This document shows, one piece after another, positions 49,736 to 62,358 of a stretch of 64,000 nt of DNA. The stretch covers positions 32,001 to 96,000 of IMG/VR virus record IMGVR_UViG_3300049460_000121; one strand, given 5' to 3'. Made by a program: the position numbers and the translations under genes. Position 1 is the first letter of the stretch. Every line of letters begins with the position of its first letter. A model generated the notes under the pieces. The model made no database searches and was not told the DNA's origin. It was given only the letters and a program-made list of their open reading frames with translations. This stretch comes from a virus (lineage: Duplodnaviria; Heunggongvirae; Uroviricota; Caudoviricetes).

Positions 49736-51298
49736 TTACCAGACTGGCCGGCCGTCACGACGTCCGCGCGAATCGCGGCTGTCACGGGCGTCCGACACAT
49801 CTGTGCTGAGACTGATGCCGCGGTTGATGTCGACATGGGACGGGGTGGAATCATCACGGGCGTGACGAACACCTTCGGCCAACTTGACGATCTCATCGGA
49901 CAACAGGTCGACGGTTTGGATAGTGTTGCTGAGGGTTGGGGCTACCAACGAGTCAGCGGCGCTGAAGAATGGGAAGTAATGCTCCTCACCCCCGTCAAGA
50001 CTGATCCAGATTTCGATATCCTGGTCAATGTTGGCGTTGATGGTGCAGTCAATATCCATCATGCCACCGTGGCTGATAGCTTGCAGGATGACCGACTCAA
50101 CCGTGGATTCGAAATACTCCAAGGTAGAGGTGGCTTCCAGTCCCTGTACAAACGGCGTGCAGCGCCCAGCCAGTACCCGAGGCTCGCCCATGCGGGCACG
50201 AGTGTTCAGGATGAGGTTGTCAACCTTCGAGTACATGGCGTTGATCATCACCACCGGAAGGCTCTGGGCAATGATGGTAGCTGCCAGGCATTCAGGGGAG
50301 TCCGAGTTCCAGCTACGCGCTTCGGACAGGTTGATGGAGGACTTCCGCATTTCGTACGGCGTGAACGGCATCTGTTCATCTTCATTGAACTCAGGATTCA
50401 TGTCCATGAGCTCGCCAAAGGTGATGTAGCCAGAGTCCATGATGCCGCTGACGCGACGCAACTCTTCCAGGTACGGATCCACGTCCAGGCAGTTCTCAGG
50501 TGCCAGGTCGGAGGCCGAGGCCATGATCAGATCGTCATCTTCACGATCAAGATCGCTACTGCCACGGGCCGAGGTTGCACGGGAGTGTGCGGTCAGGGCA
50601 CGAGACAGGAAGCGGGATGGGTCATTGTTCTCACGGGTCGATGCCCGCAGCTGAGAGCTAAAGGAACCAGTGGTGTTCGTACCGATAGAACCGGACGACC
50701 GCAGATGGCTACCGAATGCAGACTCGGAACCTTTGCGGTTGAACAGATCCATTGGACGCAGGGTCACTGGGGTCAGGTCAGTGCGACGACGCTCGCCATT
50801 AATAGCCGAACGGTTGAGGATCTGGTCATGCGCCTTGATAGACGGCTGCCAGATCTGACTGCCGCCACGGTAAGTGGCTGCTGACATGTGGACGCGAGTG
50901 ATCGAGTTGAAATACATCTTCATCTCAGGATCGAACTTCGCCCGGCCGGACAACTGGCTGTAGCCGGAGTGGTCGGTGTAGCCAACGATGTATTCGTAAT
51001 GGCTGGAGGTACGGCTGGTTTGAATCTCAACCACCATCGCAAACATCAGACGGCGCTCGCCCCAACCACCATCGATCTTTGAATCCATCTTGAAATCGAT
51101 GGACGGAACGATCATGCCTTCGCTTGCAGAGATTGCACTGGCCAGACGCTCGGCGGTAACACTACGACCATCATCGGTCAGGTTAACCACGCGGTCGATG
51201 TCTGACTGGGTGAAGTCGGTGTCGAAGGGACGAATCACGCCCTGCGCGGCACCATTGGTCTCCACCACACTCAATTTCAACAGTTTCATGTTTCCCAC
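49736..51298 (-). CDS. picA: phage-nucleus protein import factor PicA/Imp1 (phiKZ gp69-like)
   Basis: IDGGWGERRLMF, GYTD and DPEMKMYFNS; directly after the gp68-like gene. Confidence 0.75.
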   Translation of the reverse strand: MGNMKLLKLSVVETNGAAQGVIRPFDTDFTQSDIDRVVNLTDDGRSVTAERLASAISASEGMIVPSIDFKMDSKIDGGWGERRLMFAMVVEIQTSRTSSHYEYIVGYTDHSGYSQLSGRAKFDPEMKMYFNSITRVHMSAATYRGGSQIWQPSIKAHDQILNRSAINGERRRTDLTPVTLRPMDLFNRKGSESAFGSHLRSSGSIGTNTTGSFSSQLRASTRENNDPSRFLSRALTAHSRATSARGSSDLDREDDDLIMASASDLAPENCLDVDPYLEELRRVSGIMDSGYITFGELMDMNPEFNEDEQMPFTPYEMRKSSINLSEARSWNSDSPECLAATIIAQSLPVVMINAMYSKVDNLILNTRARMGEPRVLAGRCTPFVQGLEATSTLEYFESTVESVILQAISHGGMMDIDCTINANIDQDIEIWISLDGGEEHYFPFFSAADSLVAPTLSNTIQTVDLLSDEIVKLAEGVRHARDDSTPSHVDINRGISLSTDVSDARDSRDSRGRRDGRPVW

Positions 51299-51309
51299 TC
51301 CTTACTTAA

Positions 51310-52887
51310 TTAACGGACGTGATCATTCAGCTTGATCAGGATTTCAGCCAAGCGATTGCGGACGCTAGGCGAGATATCCAGGTACTCTGAAAGATCAGCG
51401 CGGTTGTATTCTACAGCGAGCTGTTTAGGGCAGTCGATGAACCAATCGGACCGCATGAACTCTTTGATGATCTCTTCGATGCCCCGCACTGCCGAGTTGG
51501 CAATGAACAGTTGATCGTCACGCTTAGGATCAGGCATCAGGTACGGGTTGATAACATCCAACACGTCCCGGTGCGTTTGGCTAACTTTCGCCTTGCTGAG
51601 TTCAGTGGTGATTGCTGATACGTCCTTTCGGGCAGTCAGCATGATGGCCAAGTCCAGGAATCCCCATTCCCAGAGAATCGTCTGCGCTACAGCCATGTTG
51701 TTCTTCAATGTTTCCATGTCGAACATGTCAATCACCACACCGGCGATAACAGTGGACATGATCCAAGCGGCCAGGCCTTTCTGGGCCCGTGTCGGGTTGA
51801 AGTCTTCAATGGTTGCGATGTGAGCGATAGCCGCTTGCAAACGCTCCGGTTGGTAGTTCGGATCGATTGCGGCAGCGCAAGTGTGGTACTCGTTCACGTA
51901 CAGCTGGATGAGAGTCAACTCACCGGCGGTAATCGCTTCCTTCATCTTGTACATCGACCAGACGGAGGAGTTATCCTCAACTGGCCCAGCTCCGCTCTTC
52001 TTCTCGGCGACTTGCTGTTTGAACTCGGTAGCCATGCGGTCAAACCGGCCATCGATATAGTTGTACAAGATCTTCATCAGGTGATCACGCTCACGCTCAA
52101 TAGAGAGTGGGGCAATCGAGAGCTTACGGATAACGGCCAGAGCCAACAGGTACGTCGGGATTTCTTCCGACGACATGAAGTTCAGTGCCGCGGTGATGTC
52201 GTACGTGGTTTCTTTGAGATTAGCCCGAACGTACACGTCCAAGCGAGTAAACGCTGGGATCTTGTAGAACTTGCTGTTCATGATCAACTGGTAGGAGGTG
52301 AACTCCTTCATGTTGATGTTTGACTCTTTGCCTGCGATCGGCAGATAGAAACCCCAGATTGGGATCATCAGACGCAAGCCCAATGCCACAGCCACCAGAT
52401 CGATGTATTCCTGGAGGCGGTAGGTCAGGGACTTGTAGGTTGGGGTGATCTTGTCTTCAGTCACGTAATCGTCCGACAGTTCCTGCGGTAGCCGGATCTT
52501 CGGATTGGTGACGATGAATTCGCGCAACTGGTCGAACTTGACGATATTGTAGATACCGTTGACTTCACGCATGATGGCACGCGTCAGGTCGTCGATGTTG
52601 CAGTCTTTCGGGTTGGACTGAGTAAAGATACCTTCCAGCTTTTCGTAATGCAGGAACAGCTGGTCCTTCTGATCTTCGGACAAGTACTTCTGGAGAAACT
52701 GGTTGATCTCCGCGAACATGTCAAGATGGCTCCCAATCTCATCGTCCTCACGAACGGAAGCATTGGGACGGGCGGTCGAGTAGCCTCCTGTTGGGAAGAA
52801 CAACTCACCTTCCGTACCGGGTTCCCGCGTTAGCGACACCGCGGAGAAACTTCGTTCGGTGTAGGTAGAGATTTTAAATTCCATCAC
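51310..52887 (-). CDS. nvRNAP promoter-specificity (sigma-like) subunit (phiKZ gp68-like)
   Basis: 525 aa; TYRLQEYIDL..LRLMIPIWG and AQTILWEWGF; synteny. Confidence 0.75.
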   Translation of the reverse strand: MMEFKISTYTERSFSAVSLTREPGTEGELFFPTGGYSTARPNASVREDDEIGSHLDMFAEINQFLQKYLSEDQKDQLFLHYEKLEGIFTQSNPKDCNIDDLTRAIMREVNGIYNIVKFDQLREFIVTNPKIRLPQELSDDYVTEDKITPTYKSLTYRLQEYIDLVAVALGLRLMIPIWGFYLPIAGKESNINMKEFTSYQLIMNSKFYKIPAFTRLDVYVRANLKETTYDITAALNFMSSEEIPTYLLALAVIRKLSIAPLSIERERDHLMKILYNYIDGRFDRMATEFKQQVAEKKSGAGPVEDNSSVWSMYKMKEAITAGELTLIQLYVNEYHTCAAAIDPNYQPERLQAAIAHIATIEDFNPTRAQKGLAAWIMSTVIAGVVIDMFDMETLKNNMAVAQTILWEWGFLDLAIMLTARKDVSAITTELSKAKVSQTHRDVLDVINPYLMPDPKRDDQLFIANSAVRGIEEIIKEFMRSDWFIDCPKQLAVEYNRADLSEYLDISPSVRNRLAEILIKLNDHVR

Positions 52888-52947: not shown

Positions 52948-52997
52948 GCATAATTTCCTCGATACAGGCCCCAAAGGGACCTGTACCTTAGATCGAG
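52948..52997 (-). terminator. imperfect hairpin followed by TTATGC
   Basis: CTCGAT.ACAGG.CCC/GGG.CCTGT..ATCGAG after the ChmC-like stop. Confidence 0.5.
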
Positions 52998-53022: not shown

Positions 53023-53820
53023 CTAGAAAGGGATATCGTCGTCGAAGCTATCGGACGCTGGGGCCGGTGCTTGTTGTGGACGAGGAGCTTGTTGCTGATT
53101 GCCGCCGTTGTAGTTGTTACCGCCACCACCGCCGTTGTTTGGACGATTGTAGTTGTTACCACCACCGCCACCTGGACGTTGGCCACCGTTGGCCTGAGCA
53201 TTCTGCATGCGCTCAAGACGTTTCTTCTTCTGGAACTCTGGTTCTTTCCAGTTCACCGCGAAGTTGGTGTTGTAGATGTCGCCCAACGCTTTGGCCCAAC
53301 CGGCCGCTGCAACTGGGGAGGTGATCTTCAGAGGAGCCGGCTGGCCGTTCTGAGTGATCGGGTGGAAATCACCTGGCTCGAATACGAACTCGACCAGTTG
53401 CATCTTCTTGGCAGCCAATGCGATGGTAACAACGCCATCGGCGCGCTTCTGAACCTGGGTCTTCGAAATGATGACTCGGTCTTTGGAGCGAATGGACTTG
53501 CCCTGATCGCGGTCCCAGATGAACGGGTGACCCCAGTTCTCGACTTCGAACGAAATCTCGTTAGGGTAGGCCGCTACCTTTTCCAGAAGGATCAGCAGAG
53601 TGTTGAACTCTTTTGGATCCATCGGGCCCTCGATTTTCATCGGGTAGCCTTTCTCGGTTTTCATGCCGAGGTCGACTTCGATGCAAGGGTTGTTTTCGAT
53701 CAACTTGATGCGCAGGCTTGGTGGGTATGCGCCTTCCTGGATTGGTTTGCCATACAGACGCAGCTTACTGTCATCCATGCAGCCTGGGTCACGACGAGCT
53801 TTCTCTGGTGCGTTCGACAT
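53023..53820 (-). CDS. chmC: nucleus-associated nucleic-acid-binding protein ChmC/Imp6 (phiKZ gp67-like) with a G/N-rich tail
   Basis: beta-rich domain, G/N/Q low-complexity linker, C-terminal DSFDDDIPF; immediately upstream of the gp68-like gene. Confidence 0.65.
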   Translation of the reverse strand: MSNAPEKARRDPGCMDDSKLRLYGKPIQEGAYPPSLRIKLIENNPCIEVDLGMKTEKGYPMKIEGPMDPKEFNTLLILLEKVAAYPNEISFEVENWGHPFIWDRDQGKSIRSKDRVIISKTQVQKRADGVVTIALAAKKMQLVEFVFEPGDFHPITQNGQPAPLKITSPVAAAGWAKALGDIYNTNFAVNWKEPEFQKKKRLERMQNAQANGGQRPGGGGGNNYNRPNNGGGGGNNYNGGNQQQAPRPQQAPAPASDSFDDDIPF

Positions 53821-53882
53821 TAATACTTCTCTTGACGAGTGGGGAATAGTGCAGTGCAACTAATGCGCACGACATGTAAAAT

Positions 53883-54740
53883 TTAAAAGCGGTAGAGGTC
53901 TTTCACCAGCGCTTCGAGTGCCGGATCACGATTCTGCTCCACACAATAGATGACGAAGTCTTTCGTCGTCATTGGTGTCCATTTGTTCTTCTCAGACAGC
54001 TCGATCAACTTCTGACGAACCTTGAGATTCATAGGAGTGAACGTGACGTTGTCACCGAACATTTGGACCGTCATCCGGTCAAACGGAATGCGCTCCAGCT
54101 CTTTGCCGTCCTTTAACTTGGTGTTCCACAGGGATGGCGGCTTAACGGCGCCTGTGTGGGATTCCAGCAAAGTCAGGCTGTCAAACTTGTAACGCTCAAG
54201 TAGATCCACAGGATAGTGAGAAATCAACAGCACCTTGCTGTGGACCTCTGGAAACTTCCGGGTCAGGGTCAAATACGGGATATGGCCCTGGTACTCACTA
54301 TCGATCACCTTGAGGACTTGTTCCTCGAAGATGTGTGAAGCTTTCTGCCCTGGTGACGTTGGGACCTTGAGGATCGCCTTGTTGAAGGTGTAGGTCAGGT
54401 CGTTGTAGCTACATTTATAGAAGGCTACATCAAACCGACCATCCCCATGCTCCACGCAGACCGTTTCAATCGCCCGCATCTCATTGACGATGTACTCAGC
54501 CACCGTCTGCTCAGTGAGGTGCTTGCGGTCCTCGGTCTTGATAGAACCCATCAGGTTACGGATCAGTGTCCGCATATTAACCCAGAGGGTGTCGTGGTCC
54601 TGGATAGGCGGGTGAGCGTTGGGGGCGTCTGGGAAGATGCCGATCAACGACTCAATAGCCAGGGACGTGGAGATGGAGATGGGAAACTGACCAACCGCCC
54701 GATTGGTCAAGAGTTCCCGCGAAACTGATTCTAAGGACAT
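53883..54740 (-). CDS. conserved core protein (phiKZ gp66-like)
   Basis: GQFPISISTSLAIE, LLESHTG and QMFGD; synteny. Confidence 0.7.
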   Translation of the reverse strand: MSLESVSRELLTNRAVGQFPISISTSLAIESLIGIFPDAPNAHPPIQDHDTLWVNMRTLIRNLMGSIKTEDRKHLTEQTVAEYIVNEMRAIETVCVEHGDGRFDVAFYKCSYNDLTYTFNKAILKVPTSPGQKASHIFEEQVLKVIDSEYQGHIPYLTLTRKFPEVHSKVLLISHYPVDLLERYKFDSLTLLESHTGAVKPPSLWNTKLKDGKELERIPFDRMTVQMFGDNVTFTPMNLKVRQKLIELSEKNKWTPMTTKDFVIYCVEQNRDPALEALVKDLYRF

Positions 54741-54761: not shown

Positions 54762-54962
54762 TTATTGGTTACCCGGCCAAGTGACGGCGTCGGCTTTACC
54801 GGTGAAGACCATCCAGGCAAGTTTGATGCGGCGGACAATGCCGCCATAGCCCAGTGGTCGTGCTGGAACCCATTGATTCCCAATGTTGACCGAATTACCT
54901 ACCTCACCGGTAGTGGATTTGATCAGTTGGGTCAGGGTGTACAGGCGTGGGGTGTTCTTCAT
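54762..54962 (-). CDS. small phage protein (WVPARP...AWMVFTGKADA type)
   Basis: 66 aa from ATG 54962, ATGA-coupled to the nuclease stop; GGAGG SD. Confidence 0.7.
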   Translation of the reverse strand: MKNTPRLYTLTQLIKSTTGEVGNSVNIGNQWVPARPLGYGGIVRRIKLAWMVFTGKADAVTWPGNQ

Positions 54963-56146
54963 GCAGCCTCCGCGAGGATTCGTTTGATACAGTCGAGTAC
55001 GGGTTTCTCTACATCTTTCACACGCGACCACAGGAGGTCGTTGATCGTATCAGGACGGATAGCCACGATGACTGGCCGTTCGATAAGCTCGGTTGTGTCT
55101 GGCGTGTAGGCATCAGCTTCCACCACCTTGGTCGTGATGTTGAACTGAGGGAACCGGGCCTTGATCTCAGCCAGGGCTGCGTACACGGGATCCTCACGAC
55201 TGATCTCCAACCGGATATGGCTACCGGATGGGAGGTTCTCACGACCCTCCAGGAACTTGTACGCAGCTTTGATCTGCACACCCTTGAGGTCGAAGGTCGA
55301 GAAGATAGTAGCGTCGTCATTGACGATGAAGAGTTCGTTAGCCGCTGTCCAATCTTTACAAATCGTGAACTGGAGGTGGCCTTTGTCCTCCTCCTCATTA
55401 TGCCGCAAACGCTCAGGGGAGCCGGGCACAGTGATTCGCCCACAGGTGGTGTGGGTGTGGTGGTGGCCGATGTAGATCCGCTCTGTCACGATCGAGTGGT
55501 AGTTCTCCACATTGTGGCTGACCACGGTGCGGATTGGCTCTTGGTACGTGAACATGCCGTGCATAAACGCATATTGTACCTGAGGGACTCCACGTTGACG
55601 CAGGAGCTCGTTTACCTGCATCCAGGTAACACTGGCGTCGTGGTTTACTTCGTCCGGCACATAAAGCGCCAGAGGCCCTCCAGCGTACAACTCATCAATC
55701 GCCAGCGTGCCGTAGTACTTGATGTCGAGGTTGATGTTCGACACTTCGTTAATCAATGGCAGCCAACGCGACTGTTTGTTGTCGTGGCTAGGGGTACCTT
55801 CCAGAATCCGTACAGCGACGTTGTGTTTGGCGCACTGACGGAGGAAGATCTCGATCCACCTGGTGATCAGCAATGCATCATCGCTGTCGTAGGTCAATCG
55901 TTTGTCGAATAAGTCACCAGTAATCATGATCATGTCAAGAAGCTTTAACCGCTCCTCGGGGAACATGGTCATCAGGGTCTTGATCACTTTGCTGGCGTGG
56001 ACTCGTCCATGTCCCAAATGGACGTCGCTGATCAGCGCCACGGTATAACCAGCCGCTACTTCACGGATGGCAGCAGTTATACCGTTGAGCTTAACGCGGA
56101 GGATGCGAGTCTCAGTAGATGAGGTCATCGTCTGAGGAGTCGTCAT
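54959..56146 (-). CDS. sbcD: SbcD/Mre11-like metallophosphoesterase nuclease (phiKZ gp65-like)
   Basis: SDVHLG, GDLFD, GTPSHD, MHG, GHHH and PGS motifs. Confidence 0.9.
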   Translation of the reverse strand: MTTPQTMTSSTETRILRVKLNGITAAIREVAAGYTVALISDVHLGHGRVHASKVIKTLMTMFPEERLKLLDMIMITGDLFDKRLTYDSDDALLITRWIEIFLRQCAKHNVAVRILEGTPSHDNKQSRWLPLINEVSNINLDIKYYGTLAIDELYAGGPLALYVPDEVNHDASVTWMQVNELLRQRGVPQVQYAFMHGMFTYQEPIRTVVSHNVENYHSIVTERIYIGHHHTHTTCGRITVPGSPERLRHNEEEDKGHLQFTICKDWTAANELFIVNDDATIFSTFDLKGVQIKAAYKFLEGRENLPSGSHIRLEISREDPVYAALAEIKARFPQFNITTKVVEADAYTPDTTELIERPVIVAIRPDTINDLLWSRVKDVEKPVLDCIKRILAEAA

Positions 56147-56762
56147 GGGTCTCTTCTGGTTGCGGGGCTGGTAGTGCCGCTTGTGTGGTATTGCGTTTCT
56201 TGGCCAGTGCCAGGATCTCGTCAGCTTGAGGTCCGAGCAGTTCTTCCATAGGTATCTGGTAGAACTTGTAAATATCTACCAACAACATAATCGCATCGGC
56301 GCGATGATGCATTTCGGTTTGAGGCTTATGGGCCTCGTAGATACCGTCTTCGATAGCCATCACACCGCGCATGTCGCCGTTGACGATCATATCGGTCTGT
56401 TGCTGTACGATGTGGTGGGTTGTGGTGAAACGACCCTCAGGCGGCGTTGTCTTGAGCTCAATGTCAATGAATGCTGGTGGGCAGACAAACAGCAACTCAC
56501 CGGAATCATTGACGATGTTCATCGGGTTGTTCAGGCCATCAGCCGTGTTCAACCAAACGCCCAGGTCTTCACAGACCTCGTTACGTACACGCTTGCGTAC
56601 GATAGGCAGTATGACCGCCTGGAAGTACTTCTCCCGCACGTTACGGATTCGGGCTGAGCTACCGGCGTTGATCGCGGCAACCGCACTGTCGAAGCCTTCC
56701 AGGCCCCGACGTACGATTTCTTGATAAGTGTGGTCGGCTTGGGCTTGGGTGAATTGGGTCAT
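56112..56762 (-). CDS. conserved hypothetical protein
   Basis: likely start MTQF after AGGA; GELLFVCPP motif; acidic tail. Confidence 0.65.
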   Translation of the reverse strand: MTQFTQAQADHTYQEIVRRGLEGFDSAVAAINAGSSARIRNVREKYFQAVILPIVRKRVRNEVCEDLGVWLNTADGLNNPMNIVNDSGELLFVCPPAFIDIELKTTPPEGRFTTTHHIVQQQTDMIVNGDMRGVMAIEDGIYEAHKPQTEMHHRADAIMLLVDIYKFYQIPMEELLGPQADEILALAKKRNTTQAALPAPQPEETHDDSSDDDLIY

Positions 56763-56778
56763 AAATGAATTCCTGTCA

Positions 56779-56804
56779 AGCTGGAGGGTTTTCACCCTCC
56801 AGCT
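56779..56804. terminator. intergenic hairpin
   Basis: AGCTGGAGGGT/ACCCTCCAGCT; no clear U-tract. Confidence 0.5.
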
Positions 56805-60163: not shown

Positions 60164-62149
60164 TTAGTAGTAGTTGCCACCGCTGTACGGACGGCGACGG
60201 CGATCAGCGCTGTCGTCGGAACGATTGCGGCGAGTACGACCGATTTCGCTGGTTGCGTACTGGCTGTAGCCATCGTGACCGATCGAGCGACGAGTCGACA
60301 GACCATCGTTGGACGAAACGTGCGGAGACATCTTCGCACCATCCAGCGAGTCTTGCAGAGCGATCAGGTAGTCCAGGTCGAAGGCCAGTTGCTCGGCAGT
60401 GCCGGTAACGTGCAGACCAGGAACCACTTTACGCAGGATCGCGTAACGCTCAGCCAGGTTGAACTCGATCGAACGACGGGTGTCTTCGAAAGTAGCCTGG
60501 AAGTCCTGTACCAGGTCCAGGTTCTTCTCGCCAACACGAGTCAGCAACGCAGGGACGTTCCATTCACGGATGTCACGGCGGTTCTGGTTCTCGTCCAACC
60601 AGGTGCCCAGCAGGGTGCGGCTACCGGTAGTGTAGACCGGACGGTAGTCGTTACCCAGGTTACGCTTGGCCAACGCATCGCTGAAGCGATTGCCGGTCAG
60701 AACGTCTGCCGAAGCATGCAGCAGGTCGATCAAGTCGTCCAGCTCGGTGCCAGGCTCTGCGATCGCGATGCGCTCGTAGATGCTCAGTACCCAGGACTTC
60801 TCGCCCGAGGATGGAACGGTCATGCCGAACGCGACGTCAGGCTTGACGGTCAGGTCGAGGTAATCGGCCAGATCGTTGTCGCTGATGTTCGGACCGATGT
60901 CCTTGGCTACGCAGGCAGCTTCTTCGTCCGGGTTCATCAGGAACAGATGGCCCAGGGAAGTCAGAGGCTTGAGACCTTCGGCCAGAGTGGCGCGAGGACG
61001 CAGCATGGTTGCCCAGCGGTAGTCGTTGGACTGTTGCACTGCCTGAGCGATCAGGAGTTGTGCCAGTTCCAGCGAGTACGGGAAGTCGCCCGAGCCAACA
61101 GAGTTGATGTTCAACACTGCTTGCCAGAACGGGCTCTCGGTATCACGACCACGACGGCGACGGCCGCCGAAACGACGCTGTTCGCTTTCGCCCTTCTCGT
61201 CGTAGGAGACGAACATGTCCAGGCCGCAGCGGATGTCGCCCATTTTGGTACGGGAGAACAGGTTGTCTTCGCCGTTCGGCTCGGAGTAGTACAGGTTGGT
61301 GGTCACGTCGCTACGAACAGGCAGACCCGAAGTGTCGATGATCTGCTTGCCGGTGTAGTCGAACGCGATTTCCAGACGGGAGCCTTTACCCATCTTGTCC
61401 GGGCTAACGCGGAACTGCGAGGAACGAGTGCCCGACTTGGCGTCGATCATGTTCTCGCGGAAGCCGCAGATGGCCTCCATCGCGTTATCGTAGATGTGAG
61501 CAACGATCTGCTCCATCTCTTTCTCGGTACGGTGGGTGAAGGTGTCAGCCAGGATAACCTGATTGCCAACCACACGGGCAGTACCGCCAACGGCCGCTTG
61601 AGCCTGATCACGCACGATGTTGATGTACGTTTCGGTCAGGTGATCTTCTGGCAGAACCAGAGCGTCGAAGGTTTCGCCACGCTCAACCAGCGGACGGGTT
61701 TGCACGTCGCCGCTTTGCTCGATCAGCAGGATGTAGGTCAGGGCGTAACGCTCGGCACCGATGGTGGCCGGCAGAACAACCAACAGGCTGGATTGCGAAG
61801 AACGCGCCAGCGAGCCATCCATCGGGATGACCTTGAACAGGTTACGCTTGGTTTCAGCAGGAACGCCAGGCTTGTCGTAAGTCTTGGCGTTCTCGAAGGT
61901 ATTAACCAGCAGAGACAGAACCGCATCGCTCAGGCCGCCCATGGATGGACGAGCTTGGAGGCGGGACATGTCAGCGAAGGTCACCTGAGTTTCGCGGTTT
62001 TCATCGCGACGGCTGCCACGGCTGCCACGGTCGCTGTCGCGGGAATCACGCTCGTCACGGCTACGATCTTCACGCAGTTCGGAACGGGTGTCTTCGCGAC
62101 GCGGCTCTTTAGCATTGTCCGGGGCGTCGGTTACAAAAGTATCGCTCAT
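60164..62149 (-). CDS. chmA: chimallin, major phage nuclear shell protein (ChmA/PhuN, phiKZ gp54-like)
   Basis: 661 aa directly upstream of nvRNAP beta'-N; GLPVRSD, GTWLDE..RRDIR and TGTAEQLAFD motifs; strong codon bias; own promoter and terminator. Confidence 0.85.
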   Translation of the reverse strand: MSDTFVTDAPDNAKEPRREDTRSELREDRSRDERDSRDSDRGSRGSRRDENRETQVTFADMSRLQARPSMGGLSDAVLSLLVNTFENAKTYDKPGVPAETKRNLFKVIPMDGSLARSSQSSLLVVLPATIGAERYALTYILLIEQSGDVQTRPLVERGETFDALVLPEDHLTETYINIVRDQAQAAVGGTARVVGNQVILADTFTHRTEKEMEQIVAHIYDNAMEAICGFRENMIDAKSGTRSSQFRVSPDKMGKGSRLEIAFDYTGKQIIDTSGLPVRSDVTTNLYYSEPNGEDNLFSRTKMGDIRCGLDMFVSYDEKGESEQRRFGGRRRRGRDTESPFWQAVLNINSVGSGDFPYSLELAQLLIAQAVQQSNDYRWATMLRPRATLAEGLKPLTSLGHLFLMNPDEEAACVAKDIGPNISDNDLADYLDLTVKPDVAFGMTVPSSGEKSWVLSIYERIAIAEPGTELDDLIDLLHASADVLTGNRFSDALAKRNLGNDYRPVYTTGSRTLLGTWLDENQNRRDIREWNVPALLTRVGEKNLDLVQDFQATFEDTRRSIEFNLAERYAILRKVVPGLHVTGTAEQLAFDLDYLIALQDSLDGAKMSPHVSSNDGLSTRRSIGHDGYSQYATSEIGRTRRNRSDDSADRRRRPYSGGNYY

Positions 62150-62335
62150 GTTGCATCTCCAGATGTGTATACACGTTTTATTAGCGAGTGGGACTATTCC
62201 CAGAATTCAGTACGATTCCTTCGTATCGCTATTGAAGGTTCCCAGTGGGATTTCTACCGTCGTAGACACTGGGCCTACTCATCCGTTGTACTAGCGGACT
62301 GCGGGTTAACAACAGTTGCGGTCTGTGTCACTAGA
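62150..62335 (-). promoter_or_regulatory. structured 5' leader of chmA
   Basis: nested inverted repeats between the promoter motif and the GGAG SD. Confidence 0.5.
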
Positions 62336-62358
62336 ATAATGTAGGTCTGTGAATTTTT
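62336..62358 (-). promoter_or_regulatory. putative early promoter of chmA
   Basis: minus strand AAAAATTCACAGACCTACATTAT. Confidence 0.65.

Follow-up and report, generated by a model that had tools for sequence, protein, structure and literature searches.

What does a phage gain from a nucleic-acid-binding protein that ends in the C-terminal peptide of a bacterial SSB, although its core is predicted to be unlike that of an SSB? The question is raised by one gene in the window, by which we mean the whole stretch of 64,000 nucleotides analysed here, representing bases 32001-96000 of an IMG/VR virus record that is 267,467 bp long, was judged complete and has a G+C content of 53.6%. The original prediction, made from the sequence, had pointed to positions 53023-53230, which span the linker, the tip and the stop codon of this gene, as the end of a ChmC/Imp6-like protein with a G/N/Q/P-rich linker and the ending DSFDDDIPF. 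To our knowledge, conservation of ChmC/Imp6 extends to all nucleus-forming jumbo phages, and the protein is both essential and very abundant.

Translation of the open reading frame bore out the linker and its ending: the product of 265 amino acids, encoded on the minus strand from the ATG at 53820 to the TAG at 53023-53025, ends in ...PAPASDSFDDDIPF, in which DDDIPF is, as had been claimed, the exact SSB C-terminal (SSB-Ct) peptide. An ending of this acidic-hydrophobic-Pro-aromatic type was found in 1 of the 2256 stop-to-stop frames that have 50 or more amino acids in the whole 267,467-bp genome, and that one is ChmC, which excludes a chance match. The gene is present as a single copy. The second in-frame start is a TTG at 53859, and the N-termini of the homologues (MS... 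or MA...) coincide with the ATG at 53820, favouring the start of the 265-residue product. The gene call of IMG begins at Met15 and gives 251 amino acids (P0275), so that window positions 53779-53820 encode an extra N-terminal stretch.

Identification of the gene as the ChmC/Imp6 orthologue of an uncultured chimallivirus

The gene product matched phrog_3284 of the PHROGs collection across the full ChmC length, and a tblastn search of cultured phages retrieved gp176 of Goslar (33% identity, E 7e-13) together with PA10_00155 of Pseudomonas phage pPa_SNUABM_DT01 (DT01). When the DT01 protein was used as the query, PhiPA3 gp61 and the phiKZ-type gp67 were reached, with 90 records. These are the proteins known as ChmC (PMC11077065) and Imp6 (bioRxiv 10.1101/2024.03.27.586873). 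A Pfam scan of the protein returned no family at E values up to 1.

The gene order also matches that of the phages that carry chmC, with genes for an SbcD-like protein, a gp66-like protein, ChmC itself, a gp68-like protein and PicA/Imp1, followed by RNA polymerase beta-like subunits and a helicase (Table 1). SbcD occupies the same position in DT01, two genes upstream of chmC; the gene that follows KTN4_089 is annotated as encoding a non-virion RNA polymerase (nvRNAP) subunit; and gp174 of Goslar is the protein named PicA (PMC13648698). A megablast search of the locus against phage records gave no match, so that a close relative in culture is absent among them; the nearest cultured relative is the P. 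aeruginosa phage DT01, which provided the best match of the nvRNAP beta subunit, at 38% identity. Homology, synteny in the nvRNAP gene block and a predicted Whirly-like core, described below, agree that the gene is the orthologue of Goslar gp176, PhiPA3 gp61 and phiKZ gp67, as had been predicted, and a divergent member of the ChmC/Imp6 family. The source is an uncultured nucleus-forming jumbo phage (chimallivirus) with only distant kinship to cultured phages.

Table 1. Features of the chmC locus, with positions in the window.
Feature	Positions	Strand	Basis
chmC/imp6 orthologue	53023..53820	-	Open reading frame; phrog_3284, E 2e-34; Goslar gp176, 33% identity; DT01 PA10_00155; 48 homologues
Predicted Whirly-like nucleic-acid-binding core, residues ~12-211	53188..53787	-	AF2 model and structural comparison
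Disordered G/N/Q/P-rich linker, residues ~212-256	53053..53187	-	pLDDT, composition, likeness to SSB linkers
SSB-Ct-type acidic tip DSFDDDIPF, extreme C-terminus	53026..53052	-	Sequence; unique in the genome; family consensus
phiKZ gp66-like conserved protein, upstream neighbour	53883..54740	-	phrog_3229; synteny
SbcD/Mre11-like nuclease, position of phiKZ gp65	54959..56146	-	phrog_100, E 2e-42
phiKZ gp68-like nvRNAP subunit, downstream neighbour	51310..52887	-	phrog_3209
PicA/Imp1-like import factor, position of and homology to Goslar gp174	49736..51298	-	phrog_3141; BLASTP E 3e-10 to Goslar_00174
12-bp hairpin, which may end or stabilise the transcript	52962..52988	-	Stem in both the MFE and the centroid structure

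Two further frames of the conserved block, of 689 amino acids (60275-62344, plus strand) and 227 amino acids (56112-56795, minus strand), are without a PHROG match at E 1e-5. The hairpin in Table 1 is perfect and GC-rich and lies about 38 nt 3' of the chmC stop codon, inside an intergenic gap of 135 nt; it is without a U tract and is not called by a simple terminator scan. A scan for promoters and terminators around chmC gave counts that were not above those of shuffled sequence.

The core of ChmC is predicted to be Whirly-like

The structure was modelled with AF2 using 41 homologues; in the model, pLDDT exceeds 90 in residues 12-211 and drops under 50 at about residue 218 and beyond. In an exhaustive structural comparison, the top match was StWhy2 of potato with a Z score of 8.4 over 134 residues, followed by PBF-2 (Z 8.0), MRP1/MRP2 of T. 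brucei (Z 7.5) and Pur-alpha (Z 6.7), and the top rows of a Foldseek search were the same Whirly-type proteins, with weak E-values. The Z scores are moderate, and the assignment is concordant with published work in which PhiPA3 ChmC was given the Whirly fold on the basis of AlphaFold. An OB fold, the canonical form of which had been named beforehand as the refutation of a non-SSB core, was absent from the structural matches in both comparisons, and a profile of the N-domain found no match among PDB sequences, so that a solved structure of ChmC is lacking in the set searched. The core is thus confidently predicted to be Whirly-like and non-OB, in agreement with the original prediction of a non-SSB protein.

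Among the six basic residues needed for nucleic-acid binding in PhiPA3 ChmC, two (R35 and K59) have a basic counterpart in the present protein (R37 and K62); the comparison covers residues 32-66 (window 53634-53728) and relies on an uncertain alignment of about 25% identity.

The SSB-type tip across the ChmC family

Nearly all of the 48 homologues retrieved by the first homologue search have a C-terminus that closely resembles the tip. For a census of tips, we used a profile of the N-domain only, to avoid bias from the tail of the query, and searched 1.84 billion representatives, of which 1207 were assigned to the family at an E value of 1e-3 or below. Among the best 150 of these 1207, 93 end in [DE][DE]-hydrophobic-Pro-[FWLMY], 16 end in the exact hexapeptide, and the remaining members are mostly one position off. 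The frequencies at the last seven positions of 192 members were 38% for F, 62%, 72% and 78% for the three D residues, 47% for I with 23% for L, 82% for P, and 68% for F with 14% for M and 7% for W, giving a consensus of F-D-D-D-I-P-F, which is that of SSB-Ct. The tip occurs in members down to a core identity of 20-30%.

On a tree of the N-domain with 193 members, the strict tip is present in 128, and the non-canonical state required 51 changes, compared with 52-57 when the labels were shuffled. This distribution indicates that the deviant tips arose in many independent small steps away from a ground state that is canonical, and that they are scattered across the tree. Such departures include those of the cultured members, as phiKZ, PhiPA3 and PA1C have an inserted residue that separates Pro from Phe, DT01 ends in Val-Pro-Leu and the end of Goslar ChmC is quite different. 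This drift is probably the reason why the resemblance has gone unnoticed. The end of ChmC has been described as an S/D/E-rich 'electronegative cluster', with SSB unmentioned (PMC11077065), and no link of SSB to ChmC, Imp6 or chimalliviruses was found in the searchable literature; the family is known, and its SSB linker-and-tip module is absent from that literature.

The description as an electronegative cluster leads to an explanation in which the end of ChmC has an internal role only, binding back to the basic nucleic-acid-binding surface of the protein and thereby tuning solubility, condensation and the binding of RNA, and needing no protein partner. It is in line with this that the acidic tails of SSB, T4 gp32 and T7 gp2.5 compete with nucleic acid for the core. 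Removal of the C-terminal region of PhiPA3 ChmC, in the same report that proposed this interpretation, ended condensates in vitro (PMC11077065). However, negative charge cannot account for the selection of a hydrophobic residue, Pro and an aromatic residue: the last three positions, which are not acidic, are the best conserved (P in 82% and F, M or W in 89%), so that a pure-charge reading of the tip is insufficient and was rejected. An internal role also leaves unexplained that the tip is invariant while the linker varies freely. In the relatives with a core identity of more than 90% (P0004-P0009 and P0275-P0284), the linker has undergone indels and substitutions with gain and loss of G/N/Q repeats, the full-length calls among them ranging from 256 to 265 amino acids overall, and F-D-D-D-I-P-F is nevertheless unchanged in all of them. 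Judging from this conservation pattern, the tip is selected as a specific peptide and not merely for negative charge. As SSB uses the same residues for self-binding and partner binding, the internal role is perhaps part of the truth, and we consider it quite improbable as the whole of it.

Resemblance to the linkers and tips of Pseudomonadales SSBs

When bacterial genomes were scanned with a degenerate DNA pattern for DSFDDDIPF followed by a stop codon, at least 120 places were found. Among the matches listed, 95 of 120 were in open reading frames of 160-199 amino acids, 75 belonged to Pseudomonadales (60 of them to Pseudomonas) and 20 to Cellvibrionales, and all 12 frames that were examined start like canonical SSBs. 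The statement in the original prediction that Pseudomonas SSB ends in DSFDDDIPF is correct and, among the matches listed, applies likewise to other Pseudomonadales.

The ChmC linker consists of two GGGNNYN-type repeats followed by a Q/P/A-rich stretch, and its composition is 27% G, 22% N, 16% Q, 12% A and 12% P. The linker without its tip scored 108 against the Pseudomonadales SSB linkers among the matches listed, compared with 67 +/- 6.6 for shuffled linkers, none of 200 of which reached 108, and with 79 for the same linker reversed. The order of motifs common to the ChmC and SSB linkers is GGGNNY-type repeats and then a Q/P/A stretch of the QQAPRPQQ type. No comparable excess in the score against the SSB linkers among the matches listed was found for the linkers of phiKZ, Goslar and RP12. 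By these sequence scores, the linker of the phage's clade resembles Pseudomonadales SSB linkers beyond composition.

One way to explain this resemblance would be a recent capture, in which recombination gave the lineage the 3' end of an ssb gene from Pseudomonadales, and ChmC would then have a host-derived tail specific to its clade. The identity of the nine terminal residues to those of Pseudomonadales SSBs and the excess of the linker score, seen here and not in phiKZ, Goslar and RP12, are what such an event would leave. However, a blastn comparison of the last 213 nt with the 3' ends of the 120 ssb loci among the matches listed, which had been selected by the tip itself, showed similarity only over the tip (21-31 nt). 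Across the family, at core identities of 20-30%, the tip moreover occurs together with a linker rich in G and N, and linkers of low complexity with fast evolution by indels can converge easily. Recent capture is unsupported because the DNA likeness stops at the tip and because the tip is present in these distant members; it was rejected as the main explanation, and we regard it as very improbable. The notion that capture or mimicry is particular to this gene is not supported either, since the family as a whole has the tip as its ground state. The likeness of the linker and the tip to those of SSB could also have arisen by convergence or have an ancient origin.

The tails of ChmC had further been proposed for a comparison with host SSB tails, and among cultured phages they do not track them: four P. 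aeruginosa phages have four different ChmC tips, none of which is identical to the host tip of the DSFDDDIPF type, and the tip of Goslar ChmC differs from that of E. coli SSB. The Pseudomonas host that had been read from the tail is accordingly only weakly indicated. The tail alone is a weak host indicator because the tails of cultured phages mismatch the SSB tips of their hosts, and a Pseudomonadales host is plausible.

ChmC as a possible analogue of SSB

The published properties of ChmC provide the background for interpreting the tip. PhiPA3 ChmC forms a homotetramer, binds ssRNA at 58 nM and ssDNA at 184 nM, is described as an mRNA-binding export factor with an affinity for RNA higher than that for ssDNA, and was first detected by proximity labelling from the recombinase UvsX (PMC11077065). 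Its C-terminal region drives condensates, ChmC lacking this region does not rescue the titre of Goslar, a phenotype attributed to condensate loss, and knockdown of chmC results in small nuclei with less DNA (PMC11077065). Association with the nuclear shell and binding to Imp1 also belong to the properties described for the family, which are known from the proteins of PhiPA3, Goslar and phiKZ. The mechanism of ChmC is unsettled among mRNA export, a role as an import cofactor and a role as a condensate scaffold.

The whole genome was searched for SSBs of the PF00436, gp32, DUF669 and Enc34 types, and none was found. The searches with PF05037, PF10991 and PF08804, which cover the DUF669, gp2.5-like and gp32 SSBs of phages, had no match anywhere in the genome, and the bacterial control genomes were likewise without a match to these three. 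The genome is thus without a recognisable SSB. The replication proteins described for chimalliviruses comprise a polymerase, a helicase and an RNase H-clamp, with no identifiable sliding clamp or primase, and SSB is not mentioned (PMC13648698).

Because the Ile-Pro-Phe end is conserved beyond charge, because of the published data on ChmC and because the genome is without a recognisable SSB, we favour, with a little better than even confidence, the interpretation of ChmC as an SSB analogue of the Whirly fold, with a tetrameric core, a linker and a docking tip. Its three modules, namely, the Whirly-like domain, the disordered linker and the acidic tip, would then copy the logic of SSB with a different core. 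By analogy with SSB, we infer that the tip could act as a short docking peptide, the terminal Pro-Phe and the free carboxylate of which would occupy a pocket of the partner, and such docking may bring partners to single strands that ChmC coats, at the phage nucleus or inside it. The tip probably also folds back onto ChmC's own basic surface when nucleic acid is absent. Points that speak against this interpretation are the published attribution of the deletion phenotype to condensate loss, the higher affinity for RNA, the altered tips of the best-studied members, the absence of gp67 from the phiKZ Rhc screen described below and the small number of aligned basic residues shared with PhiPA3.

As for the class of partner, we favour phage proteins of replication, recombination or transcription in the nucleus over host enzymes, as the drift of the tip in several lineages would fit partners that co-evolve with it. 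Proteins of the host SSB interactome are still candidates because the bacterial consensus is retained in most lineages. The canonical SSB-Ct pocket cannot be the partner in every lineage, since the tips of phiKZ, PhiPA3, PA1C and Goslar are altered.

If the host proteins are given the leading role, the tip would mimic that of host SSB, and abundant ChmC would recruit RecQ, PriA, ExoI, RNase HI, Pol III chi and TopB, among others, to the phage nucleus, or titrate them and thereby cripple host replication and repair. We judge such a hijack to be unlikely. The family consensus equals the bacterial one across very divergent lineages, as if host SSB fixed the pocket, and the clade of the present phage combines the exact nine-residue Pseudomonadales ending with an SSB-like linker. 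ChmC of PhiPA3 is highly abundant and partly cytoplasmic (PMC11077065), and import into the phiKZ nucleus is known for at least one host protein, TopA (bioRxiv 10.1101/2024.03.27.586873). However, the phage nucleus excludes most host proteins, the text of a genome-wide screen for host factors of a nucleus-forming phage does not contain priA, recQ, rnhA, topB or sbcB, and the mismatch between tips and host SSBs in the four P. aeruginosa phages and Goslar is not what mimicry would predict.

The analogy with SSB can be extended to a more ambitious proposal, which we offer tentatively and consider possible but doubtful: ChmC might be the 'missing' ssDNA-binding protein of nucleus-forming jumbo phages, that is, a protein that replaces SSB with a Whirly fold, coats ssDNA and nascent RNA inside the phage nucleus and, through its tip, organises the phage replisome and the recombination machinery. 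If so, the tip would organise the Rhc RNase H-clamp, the split DNA polymerase, the DnaB-like helicase, UvsX and SbcCD, possibly also with selected host enzymes of the SSB interactome that are imported, and the phenotypes in mRNA export and import would be partly downstream of a role in replication and R-loops.

The DNA polymerase of Goslar has Rhc as its RNase H subunit, and pulldown of Rhc recovers ChmC; for phiKZ, an AF2 screen that paired Rhc with every protein of the phage does not list gp67 (PMC13648698). An Rhc-type protein of 491 amino acids with 76 homologues of similar length is encoded outside the window (G000:C1:157037-158512; L010 586-2061, minus strand), and it has an N-terminal RNase HI domain (PF00075, E 1e-25) and a long C-terminal domain. 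A complex prediction for this Rhc homologue and ChmC residues 206-265 gave a score of 0.00 (mark 0.32), which is neither for nor against binding.

Comparison with known systems

The protein shares with the cultured ChmC/Imp6 proteins (PhiPA3 gp61, phiKZ gp67, Goslar gp176 and 201phi2-1 gp123) the phrog_3284 assignment, the Whirly-like core, a C-terminal region that is disordered and N/G-rich and leads into an acidic end, and the position of its gene between the gp66-like and nvRNAP subunit genes with PicA/Imp1 next. It differs from them in that the identity is only 27-33%, in that its tip is canonical SSB-Ct, whereas those of the studied proteins are altered, and in its Q/P/A-rich distal linker like that of SSBs.

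E. coli SSB phase-separates through its linker. PhiPA3 ChmC shows the corresponding behaviour (PMC11077065). The ChmC family is also like the bacterial OB-fold SSB (PF00436) in having an oligomeric core for single-stranded nucleic acid, the oligomer and the binding being known from PhiPA3, a G/Q/P-rich disordered linker and a terminal acidic Ile-Pro-Phe peptide; with the Pseudomonadales SSBs, the window's ChmC shares the last nine residues. The core is in contrast predicted to be Whirly-like and has no PF00436 match, and ChmC has a published preference for RNA over ssDNA and a known role in mRNA handling and import.

A precedent for the combination of a non-OB core with the bacterial tip is provided by the DUF669 SSBs of prophages, which carry the DDDIPF motif (PMC13687109). 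These are likewise phage-borne proteins that bind single strands; however, they belong to another core family (PF05037, without a match in the present genome) and act with host machinery in the cytoplasm, whereas ChmC is a protein of lytic nucleus-forming phages.

The occurrence of a family-wide SSB-type tip on a tetrameric binder of single-stranded nucleic acid means that protein recruitment is separable by experiment from the condensate function, and work on the tip could tell an analogue of SSB from a protein that decoys the SSB interactome of the host. The ChmC of the window, with its perfectly canonical tip and SSB-like linker, is a good test protein for this purpose.

Proteins of the Whirly fold are tetrameric binders of ssDNA or RNA, and those of organelles have roles in genome maintenance. 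Those that gave the best core matches (plant WHY1/StWhy2/PBF-2, T. brucei MRP1/MRP2 and Pur-alpha, with Z scores of 6.7-8.4 over 121-140 aligned residues) have a sequence identity of about 10% to the ChmC core, and we know of none among them with a linker and tip of the SSB type. Within the ChmC family, five members of 404-466 amino acids (P0058, P0094, P0124, P0130 and P0136) are matched twice by the N-domain profile and, hence, represent tandem double-Whirly forms; apart from P0094, these have kept the Ile-Pro-Phe tip, which is thus present in four of the five.
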